A DNA stretch of 18,130 nucleotides from Allobaculum fili (GTDB lineage: Bacteria; Bacillota_I; Bacilli_A; Erysipelotrichales; Erysipelotrichaceae). The notes below the pieces were generated by a model. It was not told where the DNA came from, ran no database searches, and was given only the letters and a program-made list of their open reading frames with translations. Positions 317-18,130 of this stretch are shown piece by piece. The stretch spans positions 1-18,130 of the forward strand of contig NZ_JAHDSX010000045.1 in assembly GCF_020969955.1 (NCBI RefSeq). The letters run 5' to 3'. How positions within the stretch are numbered: position 1 is the stretch's first letter; the number at the start of each line of letters is the position of its first letter. A program made the translations under genes and the position numbers.

Positions 317-322
317 AAAATG

Positions 323-1450: not shown

Positions 1451-1455
1451 CAAAA

Positions 1456-3704: not shown

Positions 3705-3751
3705 TTTTATTCCGGTGCGCCTTTCCAGAAGGGAAAGACAAAGTAAGGAAA

Positions 3752-4615
3752 TTAAACGGTCAGAATACCGAAGAAGGAGCAGACCAGCGCCAGCGCAATG
3801 ATGGCGAAGATGATTTGAATGACGCTCATTTTTCGCGAAGAGAGCAGCTTGTACACCGTAAAGGTAAGCAGTGCGGGGAGCAGAGCTGGCATGATCGAAT
3901 CGAGTACGCCCGTCTGAATGTTCAGAGCCACTTCGCCAAACGCAAATTCCAGACCGACCGTCATATGGATTACGGAAGGAATGAGGGCGCCTACGACGGT
4001 CAGCCCCATGATGGAAGCGGCCTGGGTAAACGTCTGCAGTTTGTCGCCTAAAGCAGTAATCAGCTTCAGACCGGATTCATAGCCGAGGTCGAACAGCTTG
4101 AAGCGAAGGAACAGGAAGCAGACATTCAGGACCATCCAGATGACGGCGCCGATCGGATTGCCTTCCAGACCCATGTAGGCTGCGATGGATCCCATGATGG
4201 TCGGATACAGAACCCAGATCAGGGTGTCGCCGATTCCGGCTAAAGGCCCCATCATGCCGGTCTTGAAGTTCTGTACGGTGTCGAGCGCCTCCAGACCGTC
4301 TTTTTCCTCCATGGCCAGCGAGGCGCCAAGAAGAATGTTGGCCATCCAGGTTGTAGTGTTGAAGTACTTGAACTGGTTGTCGAGCGAAGCCCGGTAATCT
4401 TCATCGTTCGGATAGAGCTTGCGCAGTGCTTTCTTCAGACCGAAAACGACGCCAGGTCCCTGCTGGCTTTCGTAGTTGAAAACGTTGCAGGCCATGAACA
4501 TGTAGCGAAATGCAGCAGTACGAATATCTTTTTTGGTCAGCACCCGATGGCTTTCGGCTGCGGGTGCCGGGCTGTTTTCCTGAATAACGGATGGAGTTTC
4601 CATGTTTTTACTCAT
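3752..4615 (-). CDS. PTS mannose-family EIID component
   Basis: Sequence LTKKDIRTAAFRYMFMACNVFNYESQQGPGVVFGL...FNTTTWMANILLGASLAMEE is typical of IID. I place the start at ATG 4615 (MSKNMET), about 9 nt after GAAGGAG. It overlaps the IIC stop (ATGAGTAA). The upstream part of the tracked ORF (to 4717) lies inside IIC and is not used. Confidence 0.85.
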   Translation of the reverse strand: MSKNMETPSVIQENSPAPAAESHRVLTKKDIRTAAFRYMFMACNVFNYESQQGPGVVFGLKKALRKLYPNDEDYRASLDNQFKYFNTTTWMANILLGASLAMEEKDGLEALDTVQNFKTGMMGPLAGIGDTLIWVLYPTIMGSIAAYMGLEGNPIGAVIWMVLNVCFLFLRFKLFDLGYESGLKLITALGDKLQTFTQAASIMGLTVVGALIPSVIHMTVGLEFAFGEVALNIQTGVLDSIMPALLPALLTFTVYKLLSSRKMSVIQIIFAIIALALVCSFFGILTV

Positions 4616-5420
4616 CCCAGTCATCTCCTTCCTCTTCGATGATTGCAGTATCGCCGGCACTCTTTGCGACGGCAGCGGCCGGCTTAGACGATGCGGTGGT
4701 GAAGTAATAGTAGGCAAGAGCCAGACCGATGATCGAAACGCCGAGCATCGGCACGTTCAGATAGGCCGATAGTACGAATCCGGCCAGAAGCATGGACAGG
4801 TATTTCTTAGCCGGCATAACCTGAAGCAGAAGCGCGATACCGACAACCGGAAGCATGTTGCCCGCGATGGACAGTCCATTGGTAAACCATTCGGGAACAA
4901 CGGAAAGAATGAAGCTGACGATCTGTTCGCCGAAGATGACGCAAAGTGCAGTTGGCAGAGCGGTGGAAAGCATGAAGATGACGGGTCCAAGCCAGAGAAT
5001 GCGTTCCATTTTTTTGAAGTTCAGCGCATCGCAGGCTTTTTTGGCTGCGTTGGCTACGTAGGTGTTGAGCAGTTTGGCAAGAACGTCGAGCTGAATGCCG
5101 AGCATGCCGACAGGAACGCCGACCGCCAGCGCAACGGCTTTGGCGGAATCGAGATCGCCCGTGGTACGGCAGGCAACGAAGATGCCGACCAGTGCGGCTA
5201 GTCCCCAGTTGGGGACGGAACTGCCTCCAATGTTGGCGACGCCAAGGTTCATCAGCTGAAATGTTCCGCCGATCATAAGTGCGGTAGTGAGATCGCCCAT
5301 GATGATGCCGGCAGGAACCGAGATCATGATGGGAAACCAGGTCATGAGGACGAGCCCCTGCTGGTCAATGACCATCCAGCAAGCGAGCAGGATGATCAGG
5401 ATAGCCTGTAAAATTTCCAT
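4608..5420 (-). CDS. PTS mannose-family EIIC component
   Basis: A 270-aa polytopic membrane protein with MEILQAILIILLACWMVIDQ...GGTFQLMNLG...GGSSVPNWG, which is ManY/SorA-like. The SD is GAAAGGAAA, about 6 nt upstream. Confidence 0.85.
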   Translation of the reverse strand: MEILQAILIILLACWMVIDQQGLVLMTWFPIMISVPAGIIMGDLTTALMIGGTFQLMNLGVANIGGSSVPNWGLAALVGIFVACRTTGDLDSAKAVALAVGVPVGMLGIQLDVLAKLLNTYVANAAKKACDALNFKKMERILWLGPVIFMLSTALPTALCVIFGEQIVSFILSVVPEWFTNGLSIAGNMLPVVGIALLLQVMPAKKYLSMLLAGFVLSAYLNVPMLGVSIIGLALAYYYFTTASSKPAAAVAKSAGDTAIIEEEGDDWDE

Positions 5421-5457
5421 ATTCAGTTTCCTTTCTCAGAATGATTGATCTGCGTGT

Positions 5458-6027
5458 TCAGATTTCCTGGTTTGAATCGACTGCGAGCGCCTCTTTGGCA
5501 AAAGGGTGAAGTTGCTTAGAGAGATCCGTCTGGATCGGGACGGTTTTTTCGTCCTTGATGTACGTTTCAAAGGCTTCTTCGCTCTCGCCCGGTACATAGT
5601 GGAACGTTACCGGTACGCCGAGCTGCTGCAGACGGCGGAAGTCCTGGACTTCCTTTTCACTGACGGAAACCATCTTTTTCACCGTCTTTTTGCCTTCGCC
5701 GTCGAAGAGAATGCCGATGTTGACTTTCGGAATCTCAATACCGTTTTCCTTGAGGGTGACGAGCGTTTCCGGCTCGCGCACAATGACGAAGACGTTGTGG
5801 TTGTTGTACTTGCCCGCTTTGAAGTTACGGATGGCGGTTTCGGTGTCGATGATGGACATGCCTGTTCCGGCCGGCTTGCTCATGCGCATCGCCTGTTTCT
5901 GGATTTCATCGCCGGATACGATGTCGTCGATGACCATCAGGCGTTTGGCTTTCGTCACTCCTGCCCACTGGGTCACGACGATTCCGTGGATGAGCCGCTG
6001 GTCGACTCTGGCTAATACAATGCTCAT
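5458..6027 (-). CDS. PTS mannose/sorbose-family EIIB component
   Basis: MSIVLARVDQRLIHGIVVTQW carries the IIB-Man phospho-His motif (RxDxRLIHGQV-like). The start is ATG 6027, preceded by GGGAGGAAAAAATT. The tracked ORF extension to 6243 has no SD and a non-protein-like sequence. About 25 extra C-terminal residues are present relative to my recollection of typical IIB length. Confidence 0.85.
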   Translation of the reverse strand: MSIVLARVDQRLIHGIVVTQWAGVTKAKRLMVIDDIVSGDEIQKQAMRMSKPAGTGMSIIDTETAIRNFKAGKYNNHNVFVIVREPETLVTLKENGIEIPKVNIGILFDGEGKKTVKKMVSVSEKEVQDFRRLQQLGVPVTFHYVPGESEEAFETYIKDEKTVPIQTDLSKQLHPFAKEALAVDSNQEI

Positions 6028-6110
6028 AATTTTTTCCTCCCTGGCTGTTCGCCCTGTTGACGAGGACAGAATAGAAAACTTCCAGAAACAGGTAAATGGT
6101 TTGCAAGGAC

Positions 6111-6165
6111 GTTGGGAAAGCGCTTCAAACTCTGGGTATTTCCCAGGACGGCGGGAAATTTCCCG
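6111..6165. promoter_or_regulatory. Cluster of GGGAAA/TTTCCC palindromes upstream of the PTS operon (candidate operator)
   Basis: CGGGAAATTTCCCG (6152-6165) is a perfect 14-bp palindrome. CTGGG-TATTT-CCCAG lies at 6132-6146 and GGGAAAGCGCTTC at 6114-6126. All sit 85-140 nt upstream of the IIB start. They are downstream, in the minus sense, of AT-rich -10-like hexamers (TATTAT and TATATA, complement of 6181-6198). Confidence 0.45.
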
Positions 6166-6310
6166 TTGAAAAAACAGCTTTATATAAAGTGAATAATACG
6201 ATAAAACGCAAAAACGAAAACGGGGAAAGCCTTTTCTTCCCATGGGCCGAAAACACTGAATCGTCCCGATTCAGGCATAAAACGCCTGCCGCCAATCGTG
6301 CAGGCAAAAG

Positions 6311-6347
6311 CGGGAAAAGAAAAAGAGATGCCAGTCTCGGCATCTCT
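6311..6347 (-). terminator. Intrinsic terminator between the ArAE-like gene and the PTS operon
   Basis: A 9-bp stem, AGAGATGCC (6324-6332) with GGCATCTCT (6339-6347), and a 6-nt loop. On the minus strand it is followed directly by TTTTCTTTT. Confidence 0.75.
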
Positions 6348-6540
6348 CAAAGGAACAGATTCTGTTTTATTTTATGGGGGCGGCTTTTCAGGTTTTTCCA
6401 GCGGACCAAGGGGTCCGTCTTGATTTTCAAGACGGATGTGCCTCCTTTTTTGACGAATATATGCATGCGGGAAGGGGCGCAAGCAGATCAGCGCGAAAGA
6501 GAGCAGGCTCGAAACTGTCGATAACCCGGACTTGGATGGA

Positions 6541-7608
6541 TTACGAAACAGCTTCTTTTGGGAGGTAATTTACCTTTTCTTCGTACTGGCGAAGCTGTCT
6601 TGGACTTAAGGAAGAAAGAAATTCGCTCTCGAGCTGCAGGTATTCCTTCAAGTCGAGCAGCACGTGATAAAACATCGCCTGACTTTCAAAATCGCTCTGC
6701 TCATCCGGACACAAGGCGCCCTGCCGAATGAGGCGGTCGACGTCTTCAAGCTGCGTTTTTGGCCGGGAAGATTCCGTTACGTGAAAGGAGAGCGTGTCGA
6801 TAAAATTTGCGGCCAGTTTGCCATGTCCGGGTATGGACTGAATGGCTTTGACATGAGCATGCAGCTGCTTGAGAATCATGCACTGCAAAAGCCGCACTTC
6901 AAAATACTGCAGAAACCATTTGTCCCGTTCGTGAAAGGAGTTTTGCGTAAACTGGGTGGCCTGGGCGATGCATTCGTTCAGTTCCTCCTGCAGGAGATTG
7001 AGATCGCTGCGCGAAACGTCGGCTTTCTGTTCCTTGCGCAAATACGCCGACACGTCGCACAGGCACGTTTTCAGTTCGGCTTCGACGGCGCCGATTTTTC
7101 GATACAGGCGTTCGCGTTCACTCAGCGTCGGCTGCAGAAGATTCAGTCCGAAGGCGATGAGCGTACCGATCATGAGCAGAATCAGCTCATCGATCACAAA
7201 TTCCGCAGAAAAGTCCCGGTTGATCAGGAAGTGCGCGCCGATGACCGCGTTGACGGAAAGCGTACTTTGCCAGTTGAGCAGATCAAGAATCAGCACGTCG
7301 GCGAAAAGAAACAGAGCGTAAGCCAGATACGACTTTTCCACCAGAGGGAAAATGACGGCACAGATCACGACGGTAATCACAAAGGAAACCAGACGCCAGC
7401 CGATCAGCTGAATCGTATCCTTACGGGTACGGGCAATCAGAGTCAGCAGGGTAATGGTTCCCGCGGATGCCGCATTGGGAAGCTTCAGAAGCTGACAGAC
7501 CAGAATGGCGGCGGCAGAACCGATCCCGATTTTGACGGCGGCCGAAAGCGCCTGGCGCCCACGGCGGCCATACTTCCAGAGCTGCGGGCGAATTTTTTCA
7601 AAGTTCAT
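6541..7608 (-). CDS. Aromatic acid exporter / FUSC-like (ArAE_1, UPF0421-type) integral membrane protein
   Basis: A 355-aa ORF. The N-terminal half has about 5 TM segments (IGIGSAAAILVCQLL..., GTITLLTLIA..., LVSFVITVVICAVIFPLV...), and a helical cytoplasmic C-terminal half follows. This organisation and the N-terminal sequence resemble Bacillus YgaE/YqjA-type proteins. The assignment is from memory of the family pattern. Confidence 0.6.
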   Translation of the reverse strand: MNFEKIRPQLWKYGRRGRQALSAAVKIGIGSAAAILVCQLLKLPNAASAGTITLLTLIARTRKDTIQLIGWRLVSFVITVVICAVIFPLVEKSYLAYALFLFADVLILDLLNWQSTLSVNAVIGAHFLINRDFSAEFVIDELILLMIGTLIAFGLNLLQPTLSERERLYRKIGAVEAELKTCLCDVSAYLRKEQKADVSRSDLNLLQEELNECIAQATQFTQNSFHERDKWFLQYFEVRLLQCMILKQLHAHVKAIQSIPGHGKLAANFIDTLSFHVTESSRPKTQLEDVDRLIRQGALCPDEQSDFESQAMFYHVLLDLKEYLQLESEFLSSLSPRQLRQYEEKVNYLPKEAVS

Positions 7609-7644
7609 AAAAAAAATCTAGCATTCCGTCCCTCTTTTCATAGC

Positions 7645-7699
7645 GAAAAAATAAGAAAAGCTCCGAAAGCCCATGCAGAACAACGGGTTTCGAAGCTTT
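7645..7699 (-). terminator. Intrinsic terminator after the 318-aa hypothetical gene
   Basis: On the minus strand, AAAGCTTCGAAACCC pairs with GGGCTTTCGGAGCTTT (one G-U pair, one bulge). It is followed by TCTTATTTTTTC and starts about 10 nt after the stop codon (7709-7711). Confidence 0.75.
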
Positions 7700-7708
7700 G
7701 ATGTTTTC

Positions 7709-8665
7709 TCAGTCGATTTTCAGGACTTCGACTTCATCGTAGTCAGGAATCGGAAGGGAAGGGGTGTAGACGTACTGAAAGCTGGACGATCCGGCGGAAG
7801 GTTTCATTTCGTAGACATCCGCAAATACGGTCTGCCCTTCTTTTTTGTAAAGAATGTTGACGTGTCCAAAATACGAATTCGGTCTATCGTCGGGCCAGCT
7901 TAACGAAAAGGCGATCGTCGAATAGCTGGAATCCCTGCCGTCATCTGTCAGCTGAACGGTGTAGTTCTGATCTCCAAGCTCGCGATATGCTTTCAGCAGG
8001 TCTTCGTCGCTCATCGTTCCTTTCTCATCGAGAAAGTCGTAATCGGAGCGCAGGTCGCTTTCCCAAAATCCGTCAACGGAAAAGGACAGATCGTTCGCGT
8101 CCAGATCCGTTTTTTCGCTTCCGGACAGGGCCAGCGTCTGATACATCGTATCGACGCCAAAGGGCATATCGATCCAGGTGCAGGCGTCTGCGGAATACGA
8201 ATTCGGGTCATCTTCTTCTGTTCGGGTGTCGTAGACGTTGATACTCATGCTCTTCGATTTCAGCGTATCCTGTCTGGAAATCTGCAGGGTGGCGAAGCTG
8301 ACGCCATTGATCTTCTCAAGGTGAGCGACCTGAACGCTTACGCCGGCTTTTTCCAGTGTAAGCACGCCGTCTGCATCGTCCGTATAGGGAAAATCGGAGA
8401 TGGAAGAGGAACGCATCACATAAACCGGAAGCAGGACAAAGCACAGACCGGCGATAAGAAGCGCAACGGGTGCTGGCTTCAGCGCATGAAGCAGTCTGGA
8501 GATCTGATGAAAAGCCGGTCGATTGTGAGCGTTCTGGGAAGCCGTATTTTTTGAGGCGCGATTTGAGGCATGAAAAGAACGGGAGTCCTTTTGCGGCGGC
8601 AAAGGCGGCTTCTTTTTTCGTTTGCCAAAATCGTCTGGCGGCATGGCGGCCTGCTGCATAGGCAT
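7709..8665 (-). CDS. Hypothetical membrane-anchored protein: basic Pro/Lys-rich N-terminus, one TM helix, acidic extracytoplasmic domain
   Basis: A 318-aa ORF. The single hydrophobic segment is PAPVALLIAGLCFVLLPVYVM (about aa 64-84), preceded by KRKKKPPLPP. The remainder is D/E/S/T-rich with beta-like periodicity. A purine-rich SD (GGAGAGAGAGGAGA) sits upstream. The start could instead be the ATG at 8659. I recognise no family. Confidence 0.6.
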   Translation of the reverse strand: MPMQQAAMPPDDFGKRKKKPPLPPQKDSRSFHASNRASKNTASQNAHNRPAFHQISRLLHALKPAPVALLIAGLCFVLLPVYVMRSSSISDFPYTDDADGVLTLEKAGVSVQVAHLEKINGVSFATLQISRQDTLKSKSMSINVYDTRTEEDDPNSYSADACTWIDMPFGVDTMYQTLALSGSEKTDLDANDLSFSVDGFWESDLRSDYDFLDEKGTMSDEDLLKAYRELGDQNYTVQLTDDGRDSSYSTIAFSLSWPDDRPNSYFGHVNILYKKEGQTVFADVYEMKPSAGSSSFQYVYTPSLPIPDYDEVEVLKID

Positions 8666-8834
8666 TCTCCTCTCTCTCCATCCCTTTAAGCACAGGATTC
8701 TTCCTTTTCAAACCTGCAGGCAATAAAGACAGGCCGTCTGGACGATTTGGCGTCCGGCGCAGTTCTTTTCGTCTAAGGGACTGCTAAAATGATAGCAGTC
8801 CGATCTTTTGAATCGAACGCTTCATCCGAAAGGG

Positions 8835-8914
8835 GAAGAAAAAAGACCAAAGCTCTGGAAAAAAGGACAAAGGGCTGGTGAAAAGGACAAGGATCTGGAA
8901 AGAAAAAGAGGAAT
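8835..8914 (+). repeat. Four tandem 20-bp purine-rich repeat units immediately upstream of the next CDS
   Basis: The units are 8835-8854 GAAGAAAAAAGACCAAAGCT, 8855-8874 CTGGAAAAAAGGACAAAGGG, 8875-8894 CTGGTGAAAAGGACAAGGAT and 8895-8914 CTGGAAAGAAAAAGAGGAAT. The two central units match at 15/20 positions. The outer units are degenerate (13/20 and 11/20 against unit 2). Confidence 0.7.
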
Positions 8915-8918
8915 TGTC

Positions 8919-9677
8919 ATGGCACAAAGAAAAAACAGTCTGAACAGGAAAAAGGCATTTCACACGTTTGATGAACTTTCTGCGTATGCTGCAGCCGGAT
9001 ATGCGATTGTATTTGGCATCTGCTTTACGTTTTTACTCGGTGTTTTTGACCGGTCGAAAAATTTCTTTGCTTTTCTGTTCTGCATGCTTTCGCTTTTTTA
9101 CGGCCTGCTTGCCGTAACGCGCTTTTTCAAAGCCATCCAGTCCCATTCGGCCCGCCCTTCGACAAAGCGGTCCGCGCCAGATGCGGAACAAAAGCCTCCG
9201 CTTCCTGTCCAGGCGAAAGCGCCGGAATATGAGCGAGAGGTTCCCGAACCGTATCGAAAGCGTCTGGCCATTTTGAAAAAGCAGATTGAACAGGCGGAGG
9301 AGAGCGAAAATGCGATCGACCGTCTGATTCAGGATTCCTTTGGCAGCTCCTGGATGTCTGCTTCCCGCTACAAGAGCGTACTGGACGGAGCCAGAGACGT
9401 TCTCGAAAAAAACTATGAAAACGCCAGTCAGGCTGTTGAAGTATTCGGCAGTGCCGACGTAACGGAAAAGCGGATCCGCTTTCTGGACAATTACGTGGCG
9501 GATTCGACGGATCTTCTCAACCGTATCAACGGCGTGATCGACAAGCTGCTCGAACTGCGCCAGAGCCAGACTTTAAAGGACGGCGACGATCTGGATGAAC
9601 GGCTCGATGAGCTGTCCAGAACGACGATGCTGTATTCAAATCAGCCAGCGCGCATGCCCTCTGGCCAGAACAAGTAA
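8919..9677 (+). CDS. Membrane protein with two N-terminal TM helices and a C-terminal helical domain (possibly XpaC / TelA-like)
   Basis: The start is placed at ATG 8919 (MAQRKNS), 8 nt after AGAGGA. The TTG-initiated extension from 8808 lacks an SD and is the repeat array translated. The TM helices are AAGYAIVFGICFTFLLGVF and FFAFLFCMLSLFYGLLAV. A roughly 150-aa coiled/helical region follows. The family call comes from architecture only and is weak. Confidence 0.55.
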   Translation: MAQRKNSLNRKKAFHTFDELSAYAAAGYAIVFGICFTFLLGVFDRSKNFFAFLFCMLSLFYGLLAVTRFFKAIQSHSARPSTKRSAPDAEQKPPLPVQAKAPEYEREVPEPYRKRLAILKKQIEQAEESENAIDRLIQDSFGSSWMSASRYKSVLDGARDVLEKNYENASQAVEVFGSADVTEKRIRFLDNYVADSTDLLNRINGVIDKLLELRQSQTLKDGDDLDERLDELSRTTMLYSNQPARMPSGQNK

Positions 9678-10132
9678 AACTTACAGGAACAAGAAAATAA
9701 CAGACACGACCCAGACAGTTTCATTCCGTCCTTCTCGCAGGCAGAGAAGGGACTGGATGGAGCTGTTTGTTTCTGCCTTTCTCTGTGTTTGTCTGCTTAT
9801 CTGCAATTTTTTCATCGCTCAGTGCGCATTTTTCACCGCTTTTGCTCGTTCTGGACCATCCAGAACCTGCAGGAAATCTCAGAGATCGTACACAATTCCT
9901 GCCCCGTTCCAAAAAGAATGACCATTTAAATCCCGATTGGATATCCTAGAAACAGAACGATCATCCAAAATGATCACGAATATGTTTATGAAAACCGATG
10001 ATCGATTCCCGCTATGCCCGCTATGCTGAGGCTGTTTTTGGAAAGGCAGTAAAAAATTACCCCCTTCGCGAGGGCAGTTTGGCGAGGATCTTATCATTTT
10101 TGTGAAATCAGGAAACAGGAGGAGTTTCTACG

Positions 10133-12166
10133 ATGGAAAGCCAGAGAACGATTACCCGACGCTTGGCTTCGGCGCTGGATTCGCTCGAAGACGAATTCAG
10201 CGGCCTGTATACAAAACGGGCTGTCACGCTGCGGCAGAAAGCTTTGGAAAAAGCCACCGAATCCATGCGGCCGTCCGCTTTAAAAAAGCTGCTGGATCTT
10301 TACGATCGCCTGGGCATTTCGTATTTGCCCGATCAGTCCAATGACTACTATCTTCACCTTACCGACACGTATGCATTCGAGCTGGAAACGTTTGAAGATG
10401 TCGAAGCCAGCATGCTGAACAGTCTCTATCGTCGCTTTCAGACGTATGCCACACCCAGTGAATATCTCAAACGCGATGTGGACCGTCTGAGTTTTCCCGA
10501 AGATGCAGCCTGGAAGGACGATTCGCTTCGGGTACGCATTCTCCGGCAGTTTGTGAAATACGGCGGATTTCCAAAATCCGCAGGGTTTGGAGGCAAAAAC
10601 TACCTGCAGAGCTGCGTCCGCGAAAAATCCGGCAATCCGAGAATGACGCTCGAAAACGGTGCGGATTTTCTCGATGACGATGTCTTTGAACCGCTGGCCA
10701 CTGCAGACAGGCCGGATCTGAAGCCGAAAGGCAAATACGGACTGCTTCGAAAAATCGATGATCTGGCCCGAGGCCGTTTTCGCGTACAGGGCGTTACAGT
10801 GCAGATGCTGTACTATTTCGCCATTGTCTATAACATGAGCTACTTTACGAACAATCAGGCGGACTTTGAAATTCTGGATCACGATTCCGATATCGAAATC
10901 AATCTGTTCCGGGACTACTACGACAATAACCTCACCCGCTTTTTATCGGAATCCATGACAAACCGGGCAGGCGGACTGGAGTATGTGCCGACCGGCCGCG
11001 GCATCAATTACAAGAACTTCGCGGAAATGGTCTATCTCTACTACCTTCGCCAGAACGATCTGAGTCCGGCGCAGAAAATTGAGCGCGCGGAACAGATGAT
11101 TGACTCGATCCGCAGTGAAAAAAGTAAGAGCGGAAAGTCCGTAAAAGCTATGGAGACGCCGACACAGCAGTATCGAAATTACGTCCGGCAGAGCCCTCTC
11201 GCCTCGAATCTGGAAGGACAGGACGCGCTTTCGTGGTCGGAGGAGGATTTTAAAGCGTTTCTTCTCGAAAACTACGACTGCGATATCTACGCGCTGACGG
11301 ATACTAGGAGAACGCCGACCGTCATGGAACTGGCACAGGAACAGCGCAGTGCCAGAGCGCAGTATCAGGCGATTCTCGATCAGCTCAATGCGCGCGGCGT
11401 GGATGCCCAGACGTGCAAAGGCGGTCTGTGGTTTACCGACGTACGCTCCATGCAAAAAGAGGGGATCGGGCTGCTCGAAGAAAAACTGGGCGTTGCGGGC
11501 GAAGACGTCAAACAGTTTGCGCGTCTTCTGATCAATGCCAACAATCTGGTCTCTTCTATAGGAAAAGACGGAAAACAGTTCAGAAAGCAGGAAGAAAACC
11601 TTTTGCCGGAAGTGCTTCTGGAAGCGCTGAATCCGTCCGATACCGAAGAAGAACCGGATGCGGAAGATCCCATGCAAATCTGGACGGATTTTGTGGCCAG
11701 GGTTCGCAATCAGTGTGCAGACCAGAATCTGGATGACAAAGAAATCCTGAACCTGGCCAGAGTTCTGGCCAGGGACAATGGGATAACGGTACCAGAAACT
11801 TTGCCGAAGGCAGCCGTACAAAACGGGAAAGCAAACAGACTGGCCAGTTTGAAAAAGCAAGCCGATTCCCAGAAACAGGCCGAAGCTTCAAACACGCAAG
11901 AAGCTGAGCCGAAACCAGAGCCCAGAAGCGTGCCGCAGCTTATGGCGATGAGCCGGACGGTTTTGCTGAGTGCCTTCTACTATTTGTTCAACGATCTGCA
12001 CGCCGTCGATTCCCCCGATATGTGGGCGTGCTACGAAGATCTGTTCAAAGCCTTTAAGCAGCAGGCGGATCCGTATCTGATCGCCGCCGGCTACCAGCCC
12101 GTCAGCGGCAAAAATCTGTTCGATGTCCTGCTGACCTTCTCCTCCTACGCCTCCCTGATTCTTTAG
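10133..12166 (+). CDS. Hypothetical 677-aa soluble protein with no recognisable domain (first gene of the kinase/phosphatase cassette)
   Basis: A long ORF with a strong SD (AGGAGGAG) 10 nt before the ATG. Amino-acid composition is protein-like throughout and no TM segment is present. There is an acidic/Lys-rich low-complexity stretch at about aa 495-600. I found no Walker, MIDAS (DxSxS) or FHA motifs. Confidence 0.75.
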   Translation: MESQRTITRRLASALDSLEDEFSGLYTKRAVTLRQKALEKATESMRPSALKKLLDLYDRLGISYLPDQSNDYYLHLTDTYAFELETFEDVEASMLNSLYRRFQTYATPSEYLKRDVDRLSFPEDAAWKDDSLRVRILRQFVKYGGFPKSAGFGGKNYLQSCVREKSGNPRMTLENGADFLDDDVFEPLATADRPDLKPKGKYGLLRKIDDLARGRFRVQGVTVQMLYYFAIVYNMSYFTNNQADFEILDHDSDIEINLFRDYYDNNLTRFLSESMTNRAGGLEYVPTGRGINYKNFAEMVYLYYLRQNDLSPAQKIERAEQMIDSIRSEKSKSGKSVKAMETPTQQYRNYVRQSPLASNLEGQDALSWSEEDFKAFLLENYDCDIYALTDTRRTPTVMELAQEQRSARAQYQAILDQLNARGVDAQTCKGGLWFTDVRSMQKEGIGLLEEKLGVAGEDVKQFARLLINANNLVSSIGKDGKQFRKQEENLLPEVLLEALNPSDTEEEPDAEDPMQIWTDFVARVRNQCADQNLDDKEILNLARVLARDNGITVPETLPKAAVQNGKANRLASLKKQADSQKQAEASNTQEAEPKPEPRSVPQLMAMSRTVLLSAFYYLFNDLHAVDSPDMWACYEDLFKAFKQQADPYLIAAGYQPVSGKNLFDVLLTFSSYASLIL

Positions 12167-12202
12167 CGGCTCCTGGCCGCCCGACAGCACCTTCTGCGTG
12201 AG

Positions 12203-12280
12203 GGAATTTTCCGTTATGTATACGAGAGGAAATTCTCTGTTATGTATATCGGTTATTTAGATCGGTTGCTTATATCGGTG
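12203..12280 (+). repeat. Two sets of direct repeats in the spacer upstream of the PP2C gene
   Basis: GGAATTTTCCGTTATGTATA (12203-12222) repeats as GGAAATTCTCTGTTATGTATA (12228-12248), sharing an identical 10-mer GTTATGTATA. This is followed by ATCGGTT / ATCGGTT / ATCGGTG at 12248, 12261 and 12274, an exact 13-nt period. Confidence 0.6.
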
Positions 12281-12384
12281 GCCTTGCGGACGGTTCTGTC
12301 TTTCGCCTTTCTTTTTCGAAACAACCGGCTCTGCCGCCGCGGCAGTTCCTGGCGAAGAAGGGAGATGTCTGTGGAGGAAGAAAA

Positions 12385-13374
12385 ATGCTGTTTTGGATGT
12401 CGGATCGCGGTACGCGTCATATCCAGGAAAAGAAAGACTGCGAAGACTGCCTCGGCGCGGCAGTGGAAGAAAATCGTGTCGTTTTGGCACTGGCGGACGG
12501 AGTCAGTACGTGTAAAAAAGCGGCGAAAGGCGCAAAAATCGCGGTGCACACGCTGCTCGATCTGCTGATGGATCTGGATCTGACCCGGCCGGCCGGTCTT
12601 CAGCGCCAGAAAATCTTTGAGAAAGTGTGGAATGCCCAGCGACTGGAAGCCGAAAAAACCGGATGCAGCGTAGAGGACTATTCGTGTATATACGCCGCGC
12701 TTCGATACGACCGGGATACGGATCGTCTGTTTTATCTCTCGCTTGGCGATGCGATGATCCTGGCGATGGGAGAAGAAACCGATCGGGGGCTGCTGGTCAT
12801 GCCGGCTTCGAAGCAAAACGGAACACCCGCATCGACCACAGTGCATGGCGAGCGTCTCCTTCAGATCGGACACGTCTGCGGCAAGCCGTATACGTCAATT
12901 CTGCTTTGTTCGGATGGAGCCTGGTCTTTACTGTACGATCGCAACCGCATGAAAACCGAGGCTCGAAAGCTCATAGAATCCGAAAACTTCGAGGGAATTA
13001 CGGGCTATCTGAAAAAAGGAAACGGTGTGGACGACTGTTCCTTTTTAGCGCTCCAGCTCGAAAACTGGATAAGGGCATCGAACATACGACCGGCACGACG
13101 GCACGCCGGTTTGTGTCGATATAAAAACGCCGGCCCAAATGCGGCTGCCTATCCGGGGCCGGGAAATCGAATAGAACGTATTCTGGTTCGTCGAAGCCCA
13201 GAGTCACCGGTTTTTGCTGATTTTTCGGGGGACACGATCGCAAAAGCCGGCACCTGGAGGCTTCAGGCCGACGGCGCGGTTTCTTATTCGCCTTTTGAAA
13301 GAAAGCAGAAGCCGGAGAGCCGCCGAATACGCAGAACCATTTTGCTGCAGGGCGAGGGAAGCATGCCCCTGTAG
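12385..13374 (+). CDS. PP2C-family (PP2C_2-like) Ser/Thr protein phosphatase with an unusual ~105-aa Arg-rich C-terminal extension
   Basis: The SD GGAGGAAG ends 5 nt before the ATG. Metal-binding motif blocks appear in canonical order: KDCEDC (NxD-like), VVLALADGVST, ILLCSDGAW and GVDDCSF. The core ends at about nt 13060. The ORF runs on to 13374 with low-complexity sequence, so the 3' boundary of the real product is uncertain. Confidence 0.75.
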   Translation: MLFWMSDRGTRHIQEKKDCEDCLGAAVEENRVVLALADGVSTCKKAAKGAKIAVHTLLDLLMDLDLTRPAGLQRQKIFEKVWNAQRLEAEKTGCSVEDYSCIYAALRYDRDTDRLFYLSLGDAMILAMGEETDRGLLVMPASKQNGTPASTTVHGERLLQIGHVCGKPYTSILLCSDGAWSLLYDRNRMKTEARKLIESENFEGITGYLKKGNGVDDCSFLALQLENWIRASNIRPARRHAGLCRYKNAGPNAAAYPGPGNRIERILVRRSPESPVFADFSGDTIAKAGTWRLQADGAVSYSPFERKQKPESRRIRRTILLQGEGSMPL

Positions 13375-13458
13375 AAGCATGTCGCTGTAAAGGAAAACCG
13401 CCAGCAGCTGAAAAAAAACGGTCGTCCGGGGACGGACAAAACGCACCGGTGCGAGAAG

Positions 13459-13482
13459 ACTTGAAAAGAAACTTGAAAAGAA
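13459..13482 (+). repeat. Perfect tandem duplication ACTTGAAAAGAA x2 in the purine-rich leader of the kinase gene
   Basis: 13459-13470 and 13471-13482 are identical. The perfect 12-bp palindrome CGCACCGGTGCG lies just upstream (13442-13453). Confidence 0.7.
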
Positions 13483-13515
13483 AAGGAAAAAAAGCTGACT
13501 GAGAAGAAGGCCGAT

Positions 13516-16500
13516 ATGAAGGCCCAAAAGAATACCAAAAAGAATGCGGGAATGGGTATGGAAATTCGAAATCCAAATGAAATCCGGCTGGTGCTGTATT
13601 CCAGACAGAGCGAGGAGCGGCTGTGCCGGGTTTTTCATATTTGTTCAAAACTTGGCGAAGGAGCTTTTTCTACGGTGTACGAAGCTTATCACGAGGAAAG
13701 TTTTCGCGGGGTACTGAAACAGTACGGACAAAAGGGCGAGAGTGCAGATTTTGTCGATCCGCTGCTTGCCCCGTACTTCCTGCTTCGGGAGACGCTTCAG
13801 AAAGGAAAGTCGCAGGATCTGGCGAACTTTCTGCCCTTGTACGAAATTTATGAAGAAGAAGGACAGAAAGGCAGCTTCTGGATCTGGATGCCGGCTGCCC
13901 GCGTCGTTTCGTTCGCGGATCTTTGCCGCTCCATTCGTCAGTCGTCGAAAACGGCGAGTGAAGTTCTGGAACTGCTGCTGACCGCGATCGGTTCGCTTTT
14001 GCGCGGCGTGCAGTCGCTTCACGAAAGCGGAATGGTTCACCGGGATCTCAAACCGGCCAACTTCGGCATCCGCAAGCACAACGATACGTATCTCTCGCAG
14101 GGCGTCTGCCTGTACGATGTGGAATCGATCTGTTCGGTTTACAAACCAGGCCTCATTGTCACGGGAACGCCAGGCTATATGGAACCCGAAGCGCTTTGGG
14201 AAGATCCAAGCAATCAGACCGATCTCTATTCGATTGGCGCCATTTTGTATAACGCGCTGATTTTTACCGAAGAAGACAGCGAACACGGAAGAACCCCGGA
14301 TGGAAATCCGGCAGGCTGTACGTTTGGTGCGGTGTATGCCGAACTGAAAAATTCCCGGCTCTTCGCGGATCCGGCTCTGAAAAATGCATCGCGCCTTTTA
14401 CGACAGCTTGCGCAGATGATCAGCCGGGCTCTGGCGCCTCGCGCGCGCCGCTATCCTTGCGCGGAACTGATGCTCGAAGATCTGAACGCCATCTTATCCC
14501 GCGTGCGGCAGATGACGCGGCGCAAAAAGCAGCAGAGCGCGCTCATTTCGCTCGAACAGTTTTTTCAGGCGTCTTCGAGTTCCCGCTTAAGAGGACTGGA
14601 ACCGCTGCGCCATCTTCATGCGCATCTGTTTGAGCTGCCCGTCGGCCGGCAAAATCCCCGATTGAACGGGAAAACGCGCCGGGAAAACCGGGTCATGCTG
14701 ATCGGGTTTGGCATTTTCAGCGAGCTGGTTATCGATCTGCTTTTGCAGATGATTCAGTTTGAGGAAAACCCAGTAGAAATTCTGATTGTCAGCGAAGATC
14801 CGGAAGAATTTGAACGGTACGTAAAAGGGCGGCCGGGTCTTCGGGATTTCTTCGGTCTCATTTACGAAACGCCTTTTGGAACCGTGAAAAAATCCGTTCC
14901 CGCAAATGCTTCGTATGGAACCATTCGTTTTTATCCTCTGCACCTCGATTTCATCGGGGATACGCTGTTCGATCTGCCGGGAAGACTGCAAAAAGACGTT
15001 CTGCATTCGGATTCCGTTTTCATTGCGCTCGCACGGGATACCAGAAACCGCAATCTGGCTGCTTCGCTGAGCGATCTGTGTGCACAAGAGAACGTCCTTT
15101 GCGATATTCGCTTTCATCAGCAGTTTCCTGAGGGCCCCTACGAGCTGGCTGTGTGGCAGGAAAACGAAAAAGAACCGGATTTTACATGTTCGAGTATGGA
15201 AGCCTTGCCAATCCGAACGGATGCAGAGTTTTCCAAAGACGAAGAAAAACTATGCCGGCTGCTCGATGAGCTGGCGTTTAATGCCCATCTGTTATGGCAG
15301 CGCCAGAGCATGCCGGATCTGGAAGCTGCCAGACGCGAATTTGAAGATCCTTACGCGTACTATTCGTCTTTATGTACCGCTATGACTATTCCCGCAAAGC
15401 TGGCGGGATTCGATCTGACGCTCGATCTACAAAATCCGAAGGACGTACTTTCCGAATTTCGAAAACGCCTGTCGGATCCGGTGTATGCCCAGGCCAGACA
15501 AAATCTGGTGTGCGCGGAACATCGCCGCTGGATTGTCGAAAAGCTCTGCCGCGGCTGGAGCCGGCTGGATGATCTGGACGCCTGCATTCCGGGCAGAACG
15601 TACGACCATCACGAGCACCATCTGCTGCTGGTGGATTCCACGCCCAGTCTGACGCTTCAGAACGGAATCTGGAAAGAGCGGTCCATGTGGGATCAGGCCG
15701 ATGAAGCACATCTGGCTTTACTGGATGATCTGGATCGACGCTCGGTGGAAGTGCACCAGCACCATTTGCGAAAAGCCAGAGACGTGCGCGCCTCGGCTAC
15801 GCCGTTTTCTCTGGGACTGGAGGAACTGGAATCGATTGCCCGCGCAAACGAAACCGTCTGGTCGGCGTTTTTCGCCTGGAAAAGCTGCGTTCTGGAAATC
15901 TGGAATGGGGAGCAGAAAGCCAGCGGGCCGTATAAAAAGCACACGGGCATCCTGAAAAAAGCGCTCGCTAAGCTGGATCCGGCGCAAGCCGTGCGTGCAG
16001 CCGATATCCTGAACCGTTTTGAACAAAGCTTCTGGCCGCTTGCCGCCTGTCACGATTACAAGGACTGGAAGATCAACGATTTAGTTCTGATTGATGAAAT
16101 TCCGTTTCTGCTCGATTTCAGCAGCGAACATCAGATCTGGATGGAACTTCGTTTGGAGTACGTGGAAGATATTCTCCATACGCTTTTTGCGTTTGAACCC
16201 CGTCAGCTCCGGATGGTCTGCGCTCCAAAAAATCAGGAAGAGGCGAAACGGGACTATGCGCTGGCTGTGCAGATTGCCCGCCTGATGCGCACCCGTCATC
16301 AAAGTCTTCAAATCGATCTTGTACTTCTGAATGAGGGAGATTCAACAGCGTTTTTGCCCATTTCATCTTCGAGGTGCGGTCCGGTATACACCGAAACCGA
16401 AATGGATGGAGAAGTTCCCGTCTATATCCTGAATCCAGACTGCTCGGATGAAGCTCTCGATCGGGCATCGGACAGGAACAAAACGGAGGAAAGCGGAAGC

Positions 16501-17841
16501 ATCGAAAACGATGCAGAAGCCTTCGTTTCAAAGCCTTCGGTTTTAGCCCGGATGTTTGTGCAGAGATTTGAGAAAACCGGACCGGCAGGAAGCCTGCTGG
16601 AAGGTCTCGTTCAAAGCGGCAAAGCGTATCGTTTAAATACTGTAAAGTCCCTCCAAGAAGACAATCTGGATCCGGATCTTTCAGACTGTCCGGAACGCGA
16701 TTCTCTCCAGCCGGAATGTCTCAATGAAAGACCCTGCATGCAGGATGAGGAAGTCATGAACTGGCTGGGTCTGAAAACCGGTCAGCCGGCGTTTGCGCAC
16801 TATGAAGGCGACGAAGAGCTGTGGGCGATTTATTCCGAAAATCCAGCGGCGTGGACATCGCTCTGTGAACTGCTTTCCGCACTTTCCGTACACATTTCGC
16901 CAATCGTCTTTGATGATCACGCTCTGGCCCCAGCCCATGAGCGAATGCAGGTTTACGCCCTGCCGGAAGCCTGCCGCCCCGCCCTAAAGCGCATTATGGA
17001 TGCGCTGAAACAGGCGCATCTCATTGAAGAAGAGAGCGGTCTGTATTCCCGCTACGTAGAATCGCTCGAATTTCGCGCAGTATCGCCTTTTGATCTGAAG
17101 GAAAGCTTTGCGCGTCTGTTCTGGAATTTCCGTCTGGTCATGGACGAACATACGGTTCAGATCGAAAAAGCTGCAAATAGGGAAGTGAAGGTTGCGCTGG
17201 ATCCGCTGGATCTGGAAACCAGCCACCTGGAAGAAGAGCTTTCGCGTCTGGAAAGTCAGTATTCGCCTGAGATTGTTTCGTCCTGCCGGGCGTGTCTGGA
17301 ACGGCTGATTCAGAAACGGCTTCTGATTTCGAGCGGATGGACAAAACCGCTCGAAGCGGGTGCGCCTTTGCGCTTTGTCTCGCACCGTCTGAAGCAGCTG
17401 CTGAGCAATCCGGTTGCGATCCTTCGTGCCCGTCTCGTCTCGCATCTGCACATGACTTCAAAGTACGACGATTTTATGGGCGGCATGTCCTTTGAATCGC
17501 GGGAAGGCAACCTTTCTTTGGACAGACCGGCCGAATTTGACTGCCTGCTGATCAAAGGTCTTCGTTCGGTTTTTGTACGCGTGATCGATACGGCAAACCA
17601 GCCATCGTCTGCCGATCTGAAAACGATCGATCAGCTGATGGCGCGCGGACATGGCCTTTGCCGGATGGTGTATGTACTTTGCTCGCCATATGCCTGCACC
17701 AGAAGGGAAGAACCGGTTCAGAGGGATGCTCTGGAGCGTGCCGGCGATCTCGATTATGTGTATTTTCTTTCGGCCGGCGCGATGGACGAGCCCGATACGC
17801 TGGAGAACCTTCCGGAAAAAATTGTCGAAGCGTTCAAGTAA
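13516..17841 (+). CDS. 1441-aa cytosolic multidomain protein: N-terminal Hanks-type Ser/Thr kinase plus ~1100 aa of unassigned domains
   Basis: Kinase motifs are LGEGAFSTV (G-loop, aa 46-54), GVLK (Lys68), HRDLKPANF (aa 175-183), DVE in place of DFG (aa 201-203), GTPGYMEPE (aa 217-225) and DLYSIGAILY. No TM, PASTA or signal sequence is present. The SD is GAAGAAGG, 5 nt upstream. In-frame alternative starts exist at Met13 and Met15. Confidence 0.85.
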   Translation: MKAQKNTKKNAGMGMEIRNPNEIRLVLYSRQSEERLCRVFHICSKLGEGAFSTVYEAYHEESFRGVLKQYGQKGESADFVDPLLAPYFLLRETLQKGKSQDLANFLPLYEIYEEEGQKGSFWIWMPAARVVSFADLCRSIRQSSKTASEVLELLLTAIGSLLRGVQSLHESGMVHRDLKPANFGIRKHNDTYLSQGVCLYDVESICSVYKPGLIVTGTPGYMEPEALWEDPSNQTDLYSIGAILYNALIFTEEDSEHGRTPDGNPAGCTFGAVYAELKNSRLFADPALKNASRLLRQLAQMISRALAPRARRYPCAELMLEDLNAILSRVRQMTRRKKQQSALISLEQFFQASSSSRLRGLEPLRHLHAHLFELPVGRQNPRLNGKTRRENRVMLIGFGIFSELVIDLLLQMIQFEENPVEILIVSEDPEEFERYVKGRPGLRDFFGLIYETPFGTVKKSVPANASYGTIRFYPLHLDFIGDTLFDLPGRLQKDVLHSDSVFIALARDTRNRNLAASLSDLCAQENVLCDIRFHQQFPEGPYELAVWQENEKEPDFTCSSMEALPIRTDAEFSKDEEKLCRLLDELAFNAHLLWQRQSMPDLEAARREFEDPYAYYSSLCTAMTIPAKLAGFDLTLDLQNPKDVLSEFRKRLSDPVYAQARQNLVCAEHRRWIVEKLCRGWSRLDDLDACIPGRTYDHHEHHLLLVDSTPSLTLQNGIWKERSMWDQADEAHLALLDDLDRRSVEVHQHHLRKARDVRASATPFSLGLEELESIARANETVWSAFFAWKSCVLEIWNGEQKASGPYKKHTGILKKALAKLDPAQAVRAADILNRFEQSFWPLAACHDYKDWKINDLVLIDEIPFLLDFSSEHQIWMELRLEYVEDILHTLFAFEPRQLRMVCAPKNQEEAKRDYALAVQIARLMRTRHQSLQIDLVLLNEGDSTAFLPISSSRCGPVYTETEMDGEVPVYILNPDCSDEALDRASDRNKTEESGSIENDAEAFVSKPSVLARMFVQRFEKTGPAGSLLEGLVQSGKAYRLNTVKSLQEDNLDPDLSDCPERDSLQPECLNERPCMQDEEVMNWLGLKTGQPAFAHYEGDEELWAIYSENPAAWTSLCELLSALSVHISPIVFDDHALAPAHERMQVYALPEACRPALKRIMDALKQAHLIEEESGLYSRYVESLEFRAVSPFDLKESFARLFWNFRLVMDEHTVQIEKAANREVKVALDPLDLETSHLEEELSRLESQYSPEIVSSCRACLERLIQKRLLISSGWTKPLEAGAPLRFVSHRLKQLLSNPVAILRARLVSHLHMTSKYDDFMGGMSFESREGNLSLDRPAEFDCLLIKGLRSVFVRVIDTANQPSSADLKTIDQLMARGHGLCRMVYVLCSPYACTRREEPVQRDALERAGDLDYVYFLSAGAMDEPDTLENLPEKIVEAFK

Positions 17842-17885
17842 AAAACGGATGTATACCCTTATGATTTATCTGCTTTTCTAACAAA

Positions 17886-17929
17886 CCCCCGAAATCGGTG
17901 TGAAACGGATTTCGGGGGTTCCGTTTTCT
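17886..17929 (+). terminator. Strong intrinsic terminator closing the kinase cassette
   Basis: CCCCCGAAATC (17886-17896) pairs perfectly with GATTTCGGGGG (17908-17918), an 11-bp GC-rich stem. It is followed by TTCCGTTTTCTC and lies about 45 nt after the stop codon. Confidence 0.85.
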
Positions 17930-18049
17930 CTGGCTATGTCTTTTCACTAGGGAGCACTGCATGCTTTTACCCCCGTAAAATGCAAAGGTCCGCCATTTCG
18001 TATAGTAAGTGTCAAACAATCGACGGGTATACGCGAGACTGAATATTAG

Positions 18050-18097
18050 ATACGCTAAACGGGATCCCTTTCGAGATCCCGCTTGGCGTATTTTTTA
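18050..18097. terminator. Compound hairpin with a T6 tract, probably a terminator shared with a convergent minus-strand gene entering from the right edge
   Basis: The outer stem is ATACGC (18050-18055) with GCGTAT (18086-18091). The inner stem is CGGGATC (18060-18066) with GATCCCG (18075-18081). TTTTTT follows on the plus strand. On the minus strand an open frame runs from the window edge (...PDPKYEENDEE) to TAA at 18095-18097, directly abutting the hairpin. That is only 11 codons, so the CDS itself is not called. Confidence 0.5.
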
Positions 18098-18130
18098 TTC
18101 TTCATCGTTTTCTTCATACTTCGGATCCGG

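Follow-up and report, generated by a model that had tools for sequence, protein, structure and literature searches.

A 1441-residue protein from Allobaculum fili combining a Hanks-type kinase with Rossmann-like, RyR-like and Can2/Card1-like regions

The 18,130-nucleotide (nt) stretch of Allobaculum fili DNA considered here (contig NZ_JAHDSX010000045.1, positions 1 to 18,130; in the following called the window) carries on its forward strand an operon whose third gene (13516..17841, +, stop codon included) encodes a giant multidomain protein of 1441 amino acids (aa). This gene is preceded by a conserved partner gene (10133..12166, +) for an all-alpha protein of 677 aa and by a gene for a PP2C-family protein phosphatase (12385..13374, +; 329 aa; Pfam PP2C_2, E=2.6e-21, residues 8-201), and in many relatives it is followed by a gene for a ~95-aa RyR protein. 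A terminator-like hairpin, CCCCCGAAATC...GATTTCGGGGG (17886..17930, +; hairpin 17886-17918, then a T-rich tail), begins 45 nt past the stop codon of the giant gene, and a terminator scan gives an overlapping terminator-like site at 17912-17933. The 4326-nt open reading frame (ORF) of the giant protein is uninterrupted in the window as well as in two further contigs.

We are confident of the domain architecture of the giant protein, in which a kinase domain is followed by a Rossmann-like domain, two RyR-like repeats, an all-helical connector, a CARF-like domain, an alpha/beta linker and a Can2/Card1-type nuclease domain; its function is moderately to weakly supported. A preliminary description of this DNA had delimited the ORF exactly as translation returns it and had proposed kinase, Rossmann, RyR and PD-(D/E)xK regions, all four of which withstood testing, although its tally missed the CARF-like domain in front of the nuclease, the second RyR-like repeat and the conserved operon shared with the 677-aa protein and the PP2C phosphatase. 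The strings quoted in it were all recovered at or within the positions assigned to them, namely HRD at aa 175-177 and LYDVE at aa 199-203, RVMLIGFGIFSELVIDLLLQ at aa 392-411 and EILIVSED at aa 421-428, ELAFNAHLLWQRQ at aa 585-597 and AEHRRWIVEKLCRGW at aa 667-681, and AEFDCLLIKGLRSVFVRVIDT at aa 1339-1359 and GLCRMVYVLCS at aa 1380-1390. The single parts belong to known superfamilies, that is, Hanks kinases, NAD(P)-Rossmann, RyR/R12, CARF4 Can2/Card1 and PP2C; new is the undescribed fusion and operon of these known kinds of parts. Neither PADLOC 2.0, NCBIfam and Pfam nor the searchable literature yielded a description of the combination of kinase, Rossmann, RyR and Can2-like regions, which agrees with the earlier statement that no family of this composition had been described.

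For the structural assignments, aa 341-1441 were modelled with AlphaFold2 (AF2) from 55 sequences; the predicted local distance difference test score (pLDDT) is 78.6 and the predicted template modelling score (pTM) 0.78. The protein had been described as devoid of transmembrane (TM) helices, and this holds: the sole hydrophobic peak among its 19-mers lies at aa 395 (Kyte-Doolittle 1.93), where a TM helix was considered and rejected, as the peak is the beta1/alphaA element of the Rossmann-like domain and is modelled with high confidence.

The kinase and the putative sensor domains

The Hanks-type Ser/Thr kinase domain (13621..14520, +; aa ~36-335) is recognised by both Pfam and PADLOC. Pfam Pkinase (PF00069) matches residues 41-251 with E=2.3e-17 and 63.7 bits, exceeding the gathering threshold of 31.7 bits, and thus bears out the kinase claim; the PADLOC model for PD-T4-6 aligns with aa 36-335 (E=4.7e-20), and those for mad6 (E=2.2e-16) and MkoA align as well. 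NCBIfam reports generic kinase similarity, far under the equivalog cut-offs (46.9 vs 460 for MAD6). The key residues comprise a Gly-rich loop (GEGAFS, 47-52), Lys68, HRD (175-177), Asn182, the triplet DVE (201-203) and an activation segment reading GTPGYMEPE (217-225), so that the catalytic residues K68, D177, N182 and D201 are all present. Among 120 aligned N-termini, the set K-D-N-D is found in 102 and R-D-N-D in another 12, and the Glu of the APE motif is kept in 94.

The replacement of DFG by DVE (14116..14124, +; aa 201-203), with 24 residues between D177 and D201, was correctly described. As a peculiarity of the giant protein it did not stand, since D-[IVL]-[DN], without Gly, characterises the family as a whole. 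DVE itself is confined, among the 120 aligned sequences, to the window protein and P0001, a relative 97% identical to it; other relatives read DIN, DVN, DID, DLD or DVD at this position, Gly is found in none of the 120, and the spacing between HRD and the triplet is fixed at 24 throughout the family. In PKA and PknB the HRD Asp and the DFG motif are 18 residues apart, which makes the spacing in the giant protein 6 longer. As the Gly-less motif and the spacing of 24 are common to essentially the whole family, they are to be regarded as an ancestral trait rather than as decay, and, with the K/D/N/D set intact, the DVE triplet is no argument for a pseudokinase. Kinases of the choline-kinase, APH and RIO types work with D-x-E or D-x-D at the DFG position. 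Judged by its residues, the atypical Gly-less kinase is probably active.

The likeness to the kinases of defence systems (PD-T4-6, Mad6 of MADS, the kinase region of MkoA of Mokosh, PglW of BREX, and Stk2) is limited to the generic kinase fold, with PD-T4-6 and mad6 offering models to which the domain aligns over its full length, and with Stk2 and PD-T4-6 sharing with the giant protein a cytoplasmic location without a membrane anchor. None of these kinases, however, possesses a Rossmann-RyR-CARF-nuclease tail, an all-alpha partner or a PP2C, and the Gly-less DFG with its 6 additional residues of spacing is specific to the family described here. PD-T4-6 and Stk2 are moreover stand-alone, single-gene defence kinases (models of ~300-560 aa), whereas the 1441-aa protein is encoded in an operon of three to four genes.

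The Rossmann-like, NAD(P)-binding-type domain (14686..15216, +; aa 391-567) carries the motif G397-F-G399-I-F-S402. In the AF2 model, a beta-alpha-beta core starts at aa 391 and is continued by alternating strands and helices, mostly at pLDDT 80-94; the second strand is EILIVSED (aa 421-428), which ends acidic/polar, and strands and helices follow each other in the expected order. Within the GxGxx[GAS] motif, G397 is found in 99 of 99 sequences, G399 in 79, and Gly, Ala or Ser at position 402 in 95. When 29 family members were scanned singly against Pfam, 13 matched Sacchrp_dh_NADP (PF03435; best E=5.3e-5), five NAD_binding_7 and three TrkA_N (PF02254), all below the cut-offs. Foldseek returned weak matches to dehydrogenases and RCK domains, and a sequence-profile search of the PDB with this region gave no match. 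Motif, model topology and the weak Pfam matches in 13 of 29 members together bear out the Rossmann proposal, and the fold assignment is supported; that the domain binds a dinucleotide is what such a fold would lead one to infer.

Two RyR-like repeats follow, repeat A (15235..15480, +; aa 574-655; motif ELAFNAHLLW...PY) and repeat B (15481..15795, +; aa 656-760; motif EHRRW...GW...G.T.D...H.L.V..S...WD). A family profile of 24 sequences (aa 565-735), searched against the entire PDB, recovered RyR domains of ryanodine receptors as the best 18 of its 20 matches, among them 6uhi (best, E=4.8e-5) and the Bacteroides thetaiotaomicron structure 3nrt (E=0.023). In hhalign comparisons with the small, genuine PF02026 proteins encoded next to the giant genes, repeat B aligned with a probability of 79-80% (E=1.4-1.6e-5) over EHRRW...GW...G.TKD...K.H.CIV.S...WD, and in repeat A the segment ERMAFNxHLvW was paired with EKIAENVHDVW. 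The RyR-like nature proposed for this region is thereby upheld, but not its description as a single domain, as there are probably two tandem R12-like repeats, the first of which is weakly supported. Within repeat A, N589, H591, W594 and Y613 are kept in 92-98 of 99 sequences. Conservation across the family peaks in repeat B, with H669 in 97, W672 in 99, H702 in 97 and D726 in 80 of the 99 sequences, and the window protein retains 25 of the 29 highly conserved positions of this repeat.

A 2026 preprint bears on these four residues (PMC13232231). In it, the RyDEP proteins of phages, members of PF02026, are shown to bind or cleave the 2'/3' cyclic ADP-ribose (2'/3'cADPR) made by TIR proteins, the ligand residues being His75, Trp78, His100 and Asp117, conserved across the R12 family. 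RyDEP H75/W78/H100/D117 correspond, at equal spacings, to H30, W33, position 55 and D72 of the small RyR proteins and, via hhalign, to H669/W672/H702/D726 of the giant protein, where the spacings are equal save for a 9-residue insertion. The His/Trp/His/Asp set of repeat B may thus be a conserved RyR-type ligand pocket. A candidate equivalent of the RyR 'YDR' element, LDDLDRR (aa 736-742), was discarded, as hhalign places W725-D726 there instead. The resemblance to the RyR/R12 family (PF02026) accordingly comprises the profile similarity to solved RyR domains and to the neighbouring PF02026 proteins, the nearly invariant ligand positions, and a probable tandem layout of two repeats like that of animal R12. 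The differences are a score below Pfam's gathering threshold, the 9-residue hairpin insertion and the shortening of repeat A; unlike phage RyDEP, a small counter-defence protein, the RyR region here sits inside a multidomain enzyme of the host.

The small (~95 aa), genuine PF02026 RyR protein is encoded directly downstream of the giant gene in 24 of the 66 loci with enough downstream sequence, and anywhere in the locus in ~35 of 86. These small proteins (e.g. L003 4452-4736) have a mean column identity of 66%, with His30, Asp72 and Arg73 invariant and Trp33 nearly so; in the alignment, the positions of the catalytic dyad of RyDEP, the phage cADPR glycosidase, fall on His30 and Asp72. The small proteins occur beside forms of the giant protein with and without a kinase alike and are absent from the window.

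The Can2/Card1-like C-terminal module

Behind the RyR-like repeats, an all-helical connector (15817..16116, +; aa 768-867; AF2 helices at pLDDT 83-95) matches nothing known, and is kept across the family, with 144 of 153 sequences matched by phmmer. It leads to a CARF-like Rossmannoid domain (16132..16656, +; aa 873-1047), which is interrupted by a disordered insert (aa ~941-996), is degenerate in the window lineage and shows a beta-alpha-beta-alpha-beta order in the model, and an unassigned alpha/beta linker (16657..17382, +; aa 1048-1289; AF2 pLDDT ~75-91), which is conserved in 107 family members with W1103, Y1106, W1113 and C1117 nearly invariant. The C-terminus is formed by a PD-(D/E)xK nuclease domain of the Can2/Card1 (CARF4, DUF1887) type (17383..17838, +; aa 1290-1441).

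The structure prediction and Foldseek search that had been suggested as a check gave VC1899 (1xmx, E=2.6e-7) and Can2 (8bao, E=7.9e-6; 7bdv, E=1.9e-5) as the top PDB matches of the C-terminal part, at a probability of 1.0, with Can2 8q3y and related entries also among the top matches. The alignments span ~590-630 columns over both target domains, with template modelling scores normalised to the target of 0.46-0.62. As the CARF-like domain precedes the nuclease, the whole C-terminal ~590 aa (aa ~873-1441) can be read as a Can2-like module with insertions. Homologues provide the link at the level of sequence profiles: P0002 and P0004 match Pfam Card1_endonuc (PF09002; P0002 with E=4.2e-8 and 33.3 bits vs a cut-off of 26.4), and homologues also match the Csx1 and, with E as low as 5.9e-13, the CARF4--CARF_PDDEXK models of PADLOC. 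The C-terminus of the window protein itself has no Pfam match at E<=1 and no PADLOC match at E<=0.1, and a single-sequence PDB search with the CARF-nuclease half of a relative gave no match. With homologues above the PF09002 threshold and VC1899 and Can2 as the closest structures, the low-confidence guess of a nuclease fold proved right. For the CARF-like domain, N988-x-T990 had been considered as motif II and was dropped, as it sits in a poorly aligned insert of the larger alignment.

The aligned homologues, likewise called for as a check, showed G397 and, in repeat B, H669, W672 and H702 to be near-invariant, and the nuclease tetrad to be intact in most relatives. It reads E-D-E-K in 98 of ~135 relatives (73%) and is variously degenerate in the rest; the window protein has R1304, D1342, R1354 and I1356. 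Where homologues read EFDC...FVECK, the window protein reads EFDC...FVRVI, and the Glu of the helix is lost too (LEI to LRA); at conserved columns of the nuclease domain it agrees in 10 of 18, compared with the 25 of 29 in repeat B. With R-D-R-I instead of E-D-E-K, the nuclease domain of the window protein is, as far as its residues tell, catalytically dead, and what had been suspected from the missing E-x-K is borne out, the helix Glu being an additional loss. Compared with the 97%-identical relative, the ratio of nonsynonymous to synonymous differences per site (pN/pS) is ~0.35 in this domain (11 nonsynonymous and 10 synonymous differences, small counts) and below 1 in all domains (again small counts), which suggests that the dead domain may still be under constraint.

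Relative to the closest locus, L005 (8427-12752), synonymous divergence (pS) is ~5-fold higher over aa 1048-1441, at ~0.09 vs ~0.01-0.02 in the 5' two-thirds of the gene. Because of this step in the 3' third, the gene appears to be mosaic, which suggests that its C-terminal part may have been swapped by recombination.

Can2 and Card1 are CRISPR ancillary nucleases activated by cyclic tetra-adenylate (cA4), and PF09002 was formerly DUF1887. The likeness of the giant protein to Can2, Card1 and VC1899 lies in the predicted fold of its C-terminal ~590 aa, CARF-like and PD-(D/E)xK domains combined, and in the E...D...ExK tetrad and the PF09002 and PADLOC CARF4 matches of its relatives. In contrast to those proteins, the module makes up only the C-terminal 40% of 1441 aa and is joined to kinase, Rossmann and RyR domains; there are large insertions between CARF and nuclease, and the CARF sequence motifs are unrecognisable. 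The family is furthermore without CRISPR-Cas association within ~+/-10 kb of the loci, and in the window protein R, R and I stand in place of E, E and K, and the sequence models miss the domain altogether.

Operon partners, family and neighbouring genes

The partner of 677 aa is 38% identical to the product of the gene immediately upstream of homologue P0002. Where the flanking sequence suffices, 51 of the 54 giant genes with a kinase are immediately preceded by a partner gene, and in 35 of the 54 a PP2C gene lies between the two, whereas the 10 without a kinase have neither; this co-occurrence ties partner and PP2C to the kinase domain. The partner has >234 homologues, every source-named one of which is called 'hypothetical', and no match in Pfam or PADLOC. 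Its AF2 model consists of helices throughout (pLDDT 79.4, pTM 0.75), for which Foldseek against the PDB gave no match (best E=2.2) and a PDB profile search returned designed helical repeats alone (E>=0.08).

With respect to the phosphatase, the arrangement resembles the PrkC-PrpC and PknB-PstP pairs, in which kinase and PP2C are likewise adjacent and co-oriented. The giant protein differs from PrkC and PknB in having neither PASTA domains nor a TM segment and in carrying a nuclease and a sensor tail, and its operon differs in its patchy distribution, its variable flanks and a third conserved gene without a known fold. The PP2C ORF of the window has 329 aa vs ~240 aa at other loci. Its C-terminal ~115 aa (13030-13374) form an Arg/Pro-rich tail, also found in L005, which has no family match; it may be a genuine extension, or a lost stop codon may have led to read-through. 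In a metagenome-assembled genome of the Lachnospiraceae (L028, 3581-8512), PP2C and giant protein lie in a single stop-free frame, a possible natural fusion of phosphatase and kinase unless an assembly or frame artefact accounts for it.

To define the family, 1.84 billion cluster representatives were searched exhaustively with aa 341-1441, the part behind the kinase. At 50% identity, 436 clusters reached E<=1e-3 and 150 reached E<=1e-30, with anaerobes of gut and rumen as the hosts; a word-indexed homologue search with the same part found four proteins. Most members have 1300-1450 aa and are highly divergent, with ~20-30% identity among related gut Firmicutes. Domain by domain, phmmer showed the order kinase, Rossmann-like, RyR-like, helical, variable, alpha/beta and nuclease to be common across the family, and ~15% of members are forms of ~1000 aa which are without the kinase and keep the nuclease. 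Most of the 80 loci retrieved from GTDB species representatives belong to Lachnospiraceae, Ruminococcus and other Clostridia, Selenomonadaceae, Synergistaceae and Sphaerochaetaceae of gut and rumen, and the closest is that of Allobaculum mucilyticum. A PDB profile search with the full family alignment was swamped by kinase matches, and a viral fold search in BFVD gave nothing useful.

Neighbouring genes vary. TIR genes lie near the giant gene in ~7-14 of 86 loci, including TIR-NACHT-TPR (Allobaculum) and TIR-LRR genes, and a ClpP-like protease with a soluble TraG/VirD4-like ATPase in ~12-14 of 86; the latter pair was considered as an integral part of the operon and, given this frequency and its variable positions, is treated as a frequent neighbour. 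In L005, the closest relative of the window, the ClpP-like protease and the TraG/VirD4-like ATPase directly follow the giant gene, which is not so in the window. PADLOC, applied to the small RyR, ClpP and TraG-like proteins, gave nothing beyond a marginal mad8 match (E=0.007). Within ~+/-10 kb, the 1026 ORFs neighbouring 86 loci include no recurrent cas genes, and 87 loci searched for CRISPR arrays gave no real one.

A proposed conflict-type kinase effector and its alternatives

The operon most likely serves signalling or defence against phages and has so far gone unrecognised. By a narrow preference, we read the giant protein as a nucleotide-sensing kinase effector of a conflict operon, anti-phage or abortive-infection-like. 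The Rossmann, RyR and CARF domains would be intracellular sensors of a signal of the adenine-nucleotide type, most plausibly NAD-derived or of the ADP-ribose type, which would bind the His/Trp/His/Asp pocket of RyR repeat B. The ligand would switch on the kinase, which would phosphorylate itself, the partner or cellular targets and be reset by PP2C, with the partner acting as substrate, co-sensor or adaptor; in most relatives, the Can2-type nuclease would be a second ligand-triggered output. With the catalytic Glu, Glu and Lys and most of the CARF consensus lost in the window lineage, the kinase would be the only catalytic output remaining there, and the dead nuclease may be retained for structure, dimerisation or nucleic-acid binding. 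For a conflict role speak the TIR, TIR-NACHT-TPR, TIR-LRR, ClpP and TraG/VirD4-like neighbours in a minority of loci, and the kinase itself, to which the defence models PD-T4-6, mad6 and MkoA are closest.

Several observations weigh against this reading. Pairs of a Ser/Thr kinase (STK) and PP2C are typical of housekeeping signalling too, the neighbours of the giant gene in the window are sugar-phosphotransferase and amylase genes and not defence genes, and a search of the plasmid and phage collections brought up no family member, mobility being a mark that defence islands commonly bear. Nor does the operon consistently include an enzyme that would produce the signal, TIR genes being present in only ~7-14 of 86 loci. 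As to the sensors, the Rossmann and RyR assignments stay under the Pfam gathering thresholds, the window protein scoring 14 bits vs 25.1 for the Rossmann profile and 13.6 bits vs 27.4 (E=0.083) for PF02026, with P0003 at 13.5 bits for the latter; repeat A aligns weakly with the small RyR proteins (hhalign probability 30%, E=5.5e-4), and the correspondence between RyDEP and the giant protein passes through alignments of family profiles and not through a direct alignment of RyDEP. The CARF-like domain is without sequence-level evidence, its assignment coming from the predicted structure, and this part is the least conserved region of the family, the window protein agreeing at one of nine conserved columns.

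A more specific version of the conflict reading, put forward tentatively and more doubtful than the general one, sees in the family a new class of host immune receptor-effectors, in which the bacterium's own RyR domain would sense an NAD-derived, ADP-ribose-type signal and respond by kinase activity and Can2-type cleavage. The signal could stem from TIR proteins encoded nearby or elsewhere, and the kinase, reset by PP2C, would act on or through the all-alpha partner. Much like a ring nuclease, the small RyR protein of the host would provide a built-in buffer for the signal or an off-switch; the lineage of the window would then be a naturally occurring variant restricted to the kinase. If the conflict reading is right, protein phosphorylation would be a third output in the repertoire of CARF/Can2-type effectors, and TIR/NAD-derived signalling, Ser/Thr phosphorylation and nuclease effectors would be joined in a single polypeptide. 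The bacterial RyR domain, which only the 2026 preprint on phage counter-defence has shown to bind nucleotide signals (PMC13232231), would have a role on the host side. Irrespective of its function, this is an entirely unannotated family that abounds in Firmicutes of gut and rumen, has an obligate partner protein without a detectable structural relative, and offers in its natural variants (kinase-less, nuclease-dead, with or without PP2C) ready material for the separation of functions.

Among the alternatives, a housekeeping role fares best and is nonetheless unlikely. With its Rossmann and RyR domains, an ordinary regulatory STK/PP2C pair such as PrkC/PrpC or PknB/PstP would sense a metabolite, NAD(P)H or an adenine nucleotide, and tune metabolism or growth, the nuclease being a relic without a part in phage conflict. 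Such a role would suit the classic housekeeping arrangement of STK-PP2C operons, the surroundings of mannose-type phosphotransferase system (PTS), GH13 amylase, RpiR and ArAE exporter genes in the window, the independent decay of the nuclease in ~27% of relatives with the kinase intact, the plasmid and phage collections without a match, and a partner without a match in the defence library. It fits poorly, however, with the Can2-type tetrad kept by 73% of relatives, since a non-specific nuclease is unexpected in a housekeeping regulator, and with kinase-less forms that retain the nuclease. The recurrence of TIR-NACHT-TPR, TIR-LRR and ClpP/TraG-like neighbours, flanks that vary between loci, the window and its 97% relative included, and the high divergence of the family among related gut Firmicutes likewise favour the conflict reading.

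An ancillary effector of type III CRISPR-Cas, or a CBASS-like one, acting in trans is a distinctly improbable explanation, in which cyclic oligoadenylate from a Cas10 encoded elsewhere in the genome would bind to the CARF domain and thereby activate kinase and nuclease. Its appeal derives from the superposition of the C-terminal ~590 aa on Can2 and VC1899 and from the CARF4--CARF_PDDEXK, Csx1 and Card1_endonuc matches of homologues. Against it stand the loci, with neither a recurrent cas cluster nor real arrays within ~+/-10 kb, and the protein itself, in which the strongly conserved pocket sits in the RyR region and not in the CARF domain, the latter being least conserved and, by our own reading of the motif, without the usual Gly-rich CARF motif; VC1899 and many CARF4 proteins, moreover, are not linked to CRISPR.

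That the protein is instead a decaying or non-enzymatic scaffold, a pseudokinase by loss of the DFG Gly which, with its dead nuclease, would be an inactive remnant or pure adaptor, is likewise improbable, as the DVE triplet with its spacing of 6 residues more than in PKA and PknB, the lost nuclease tetrad and CARF consensus and the ~5-fold more diverged 3' third that might suggest it are met by the family-wide and hence ancestral nature of motif and spacing, the presence of K68, D177, N182, D201, the Gly-rich loop and the GTxGYxEPE segment, the functioning of choline-kinase, APH and RIO kinases with comparable triplets, the uninterrupted ORF on three contigs, and a pN/pS below 1 (from small counts) in every domain.

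With respect to the remainder of the window, a sugar-utilisation block occupies 444-7608 on the minus strand and comprises an RpiR/SIS regulator, a GH13 alpha-amylase-family enzyme and the mannose-type PTS components IIA, IID, IIC and IIB, followed by an ArAE-family exporter. Between this block and the operon lie two divergently oriented ORFs (7709-8665, -, and 8808-9677, +) for proteins of 318 and 289 aa, each with a basic N-terminus and then a hydrophobic segment, which match neither Pfam nor PADLOC; as only L005 among the fetched loci has them, they are placed outside the conserved operon. Downstream of the giant gene, the window (17842-18130) and L005 (12753-13060) are identical for ~165 nt past the stop codon and diverge totally from ~18007, and because the sequence differs from there on, the comparison of the two places a recombination or insertion breakpoint just past the terminator in the window.

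In Allobaculum mucilyticum (L007; 13029-17449, -, and 17832-20481), whose homologue is the closest from a cultured organism, a dense, defence-island-like cluster directly downstream of this homologue encodes a TIR-NACHT-TPR protein, a TPR protein, the pair of ClpP-like and TraG-like proteins, and a small RyR protein. Upstream of P0002 (L001, 2122-8054) lie genes for a ThiF/E1-like protein matching the CBASS-type E1-E2 models of PADLOC, a 225-aa protein, the ClpP-like and TraG-like pair, a 117-aa protein and a TIR protein of 629 aa.

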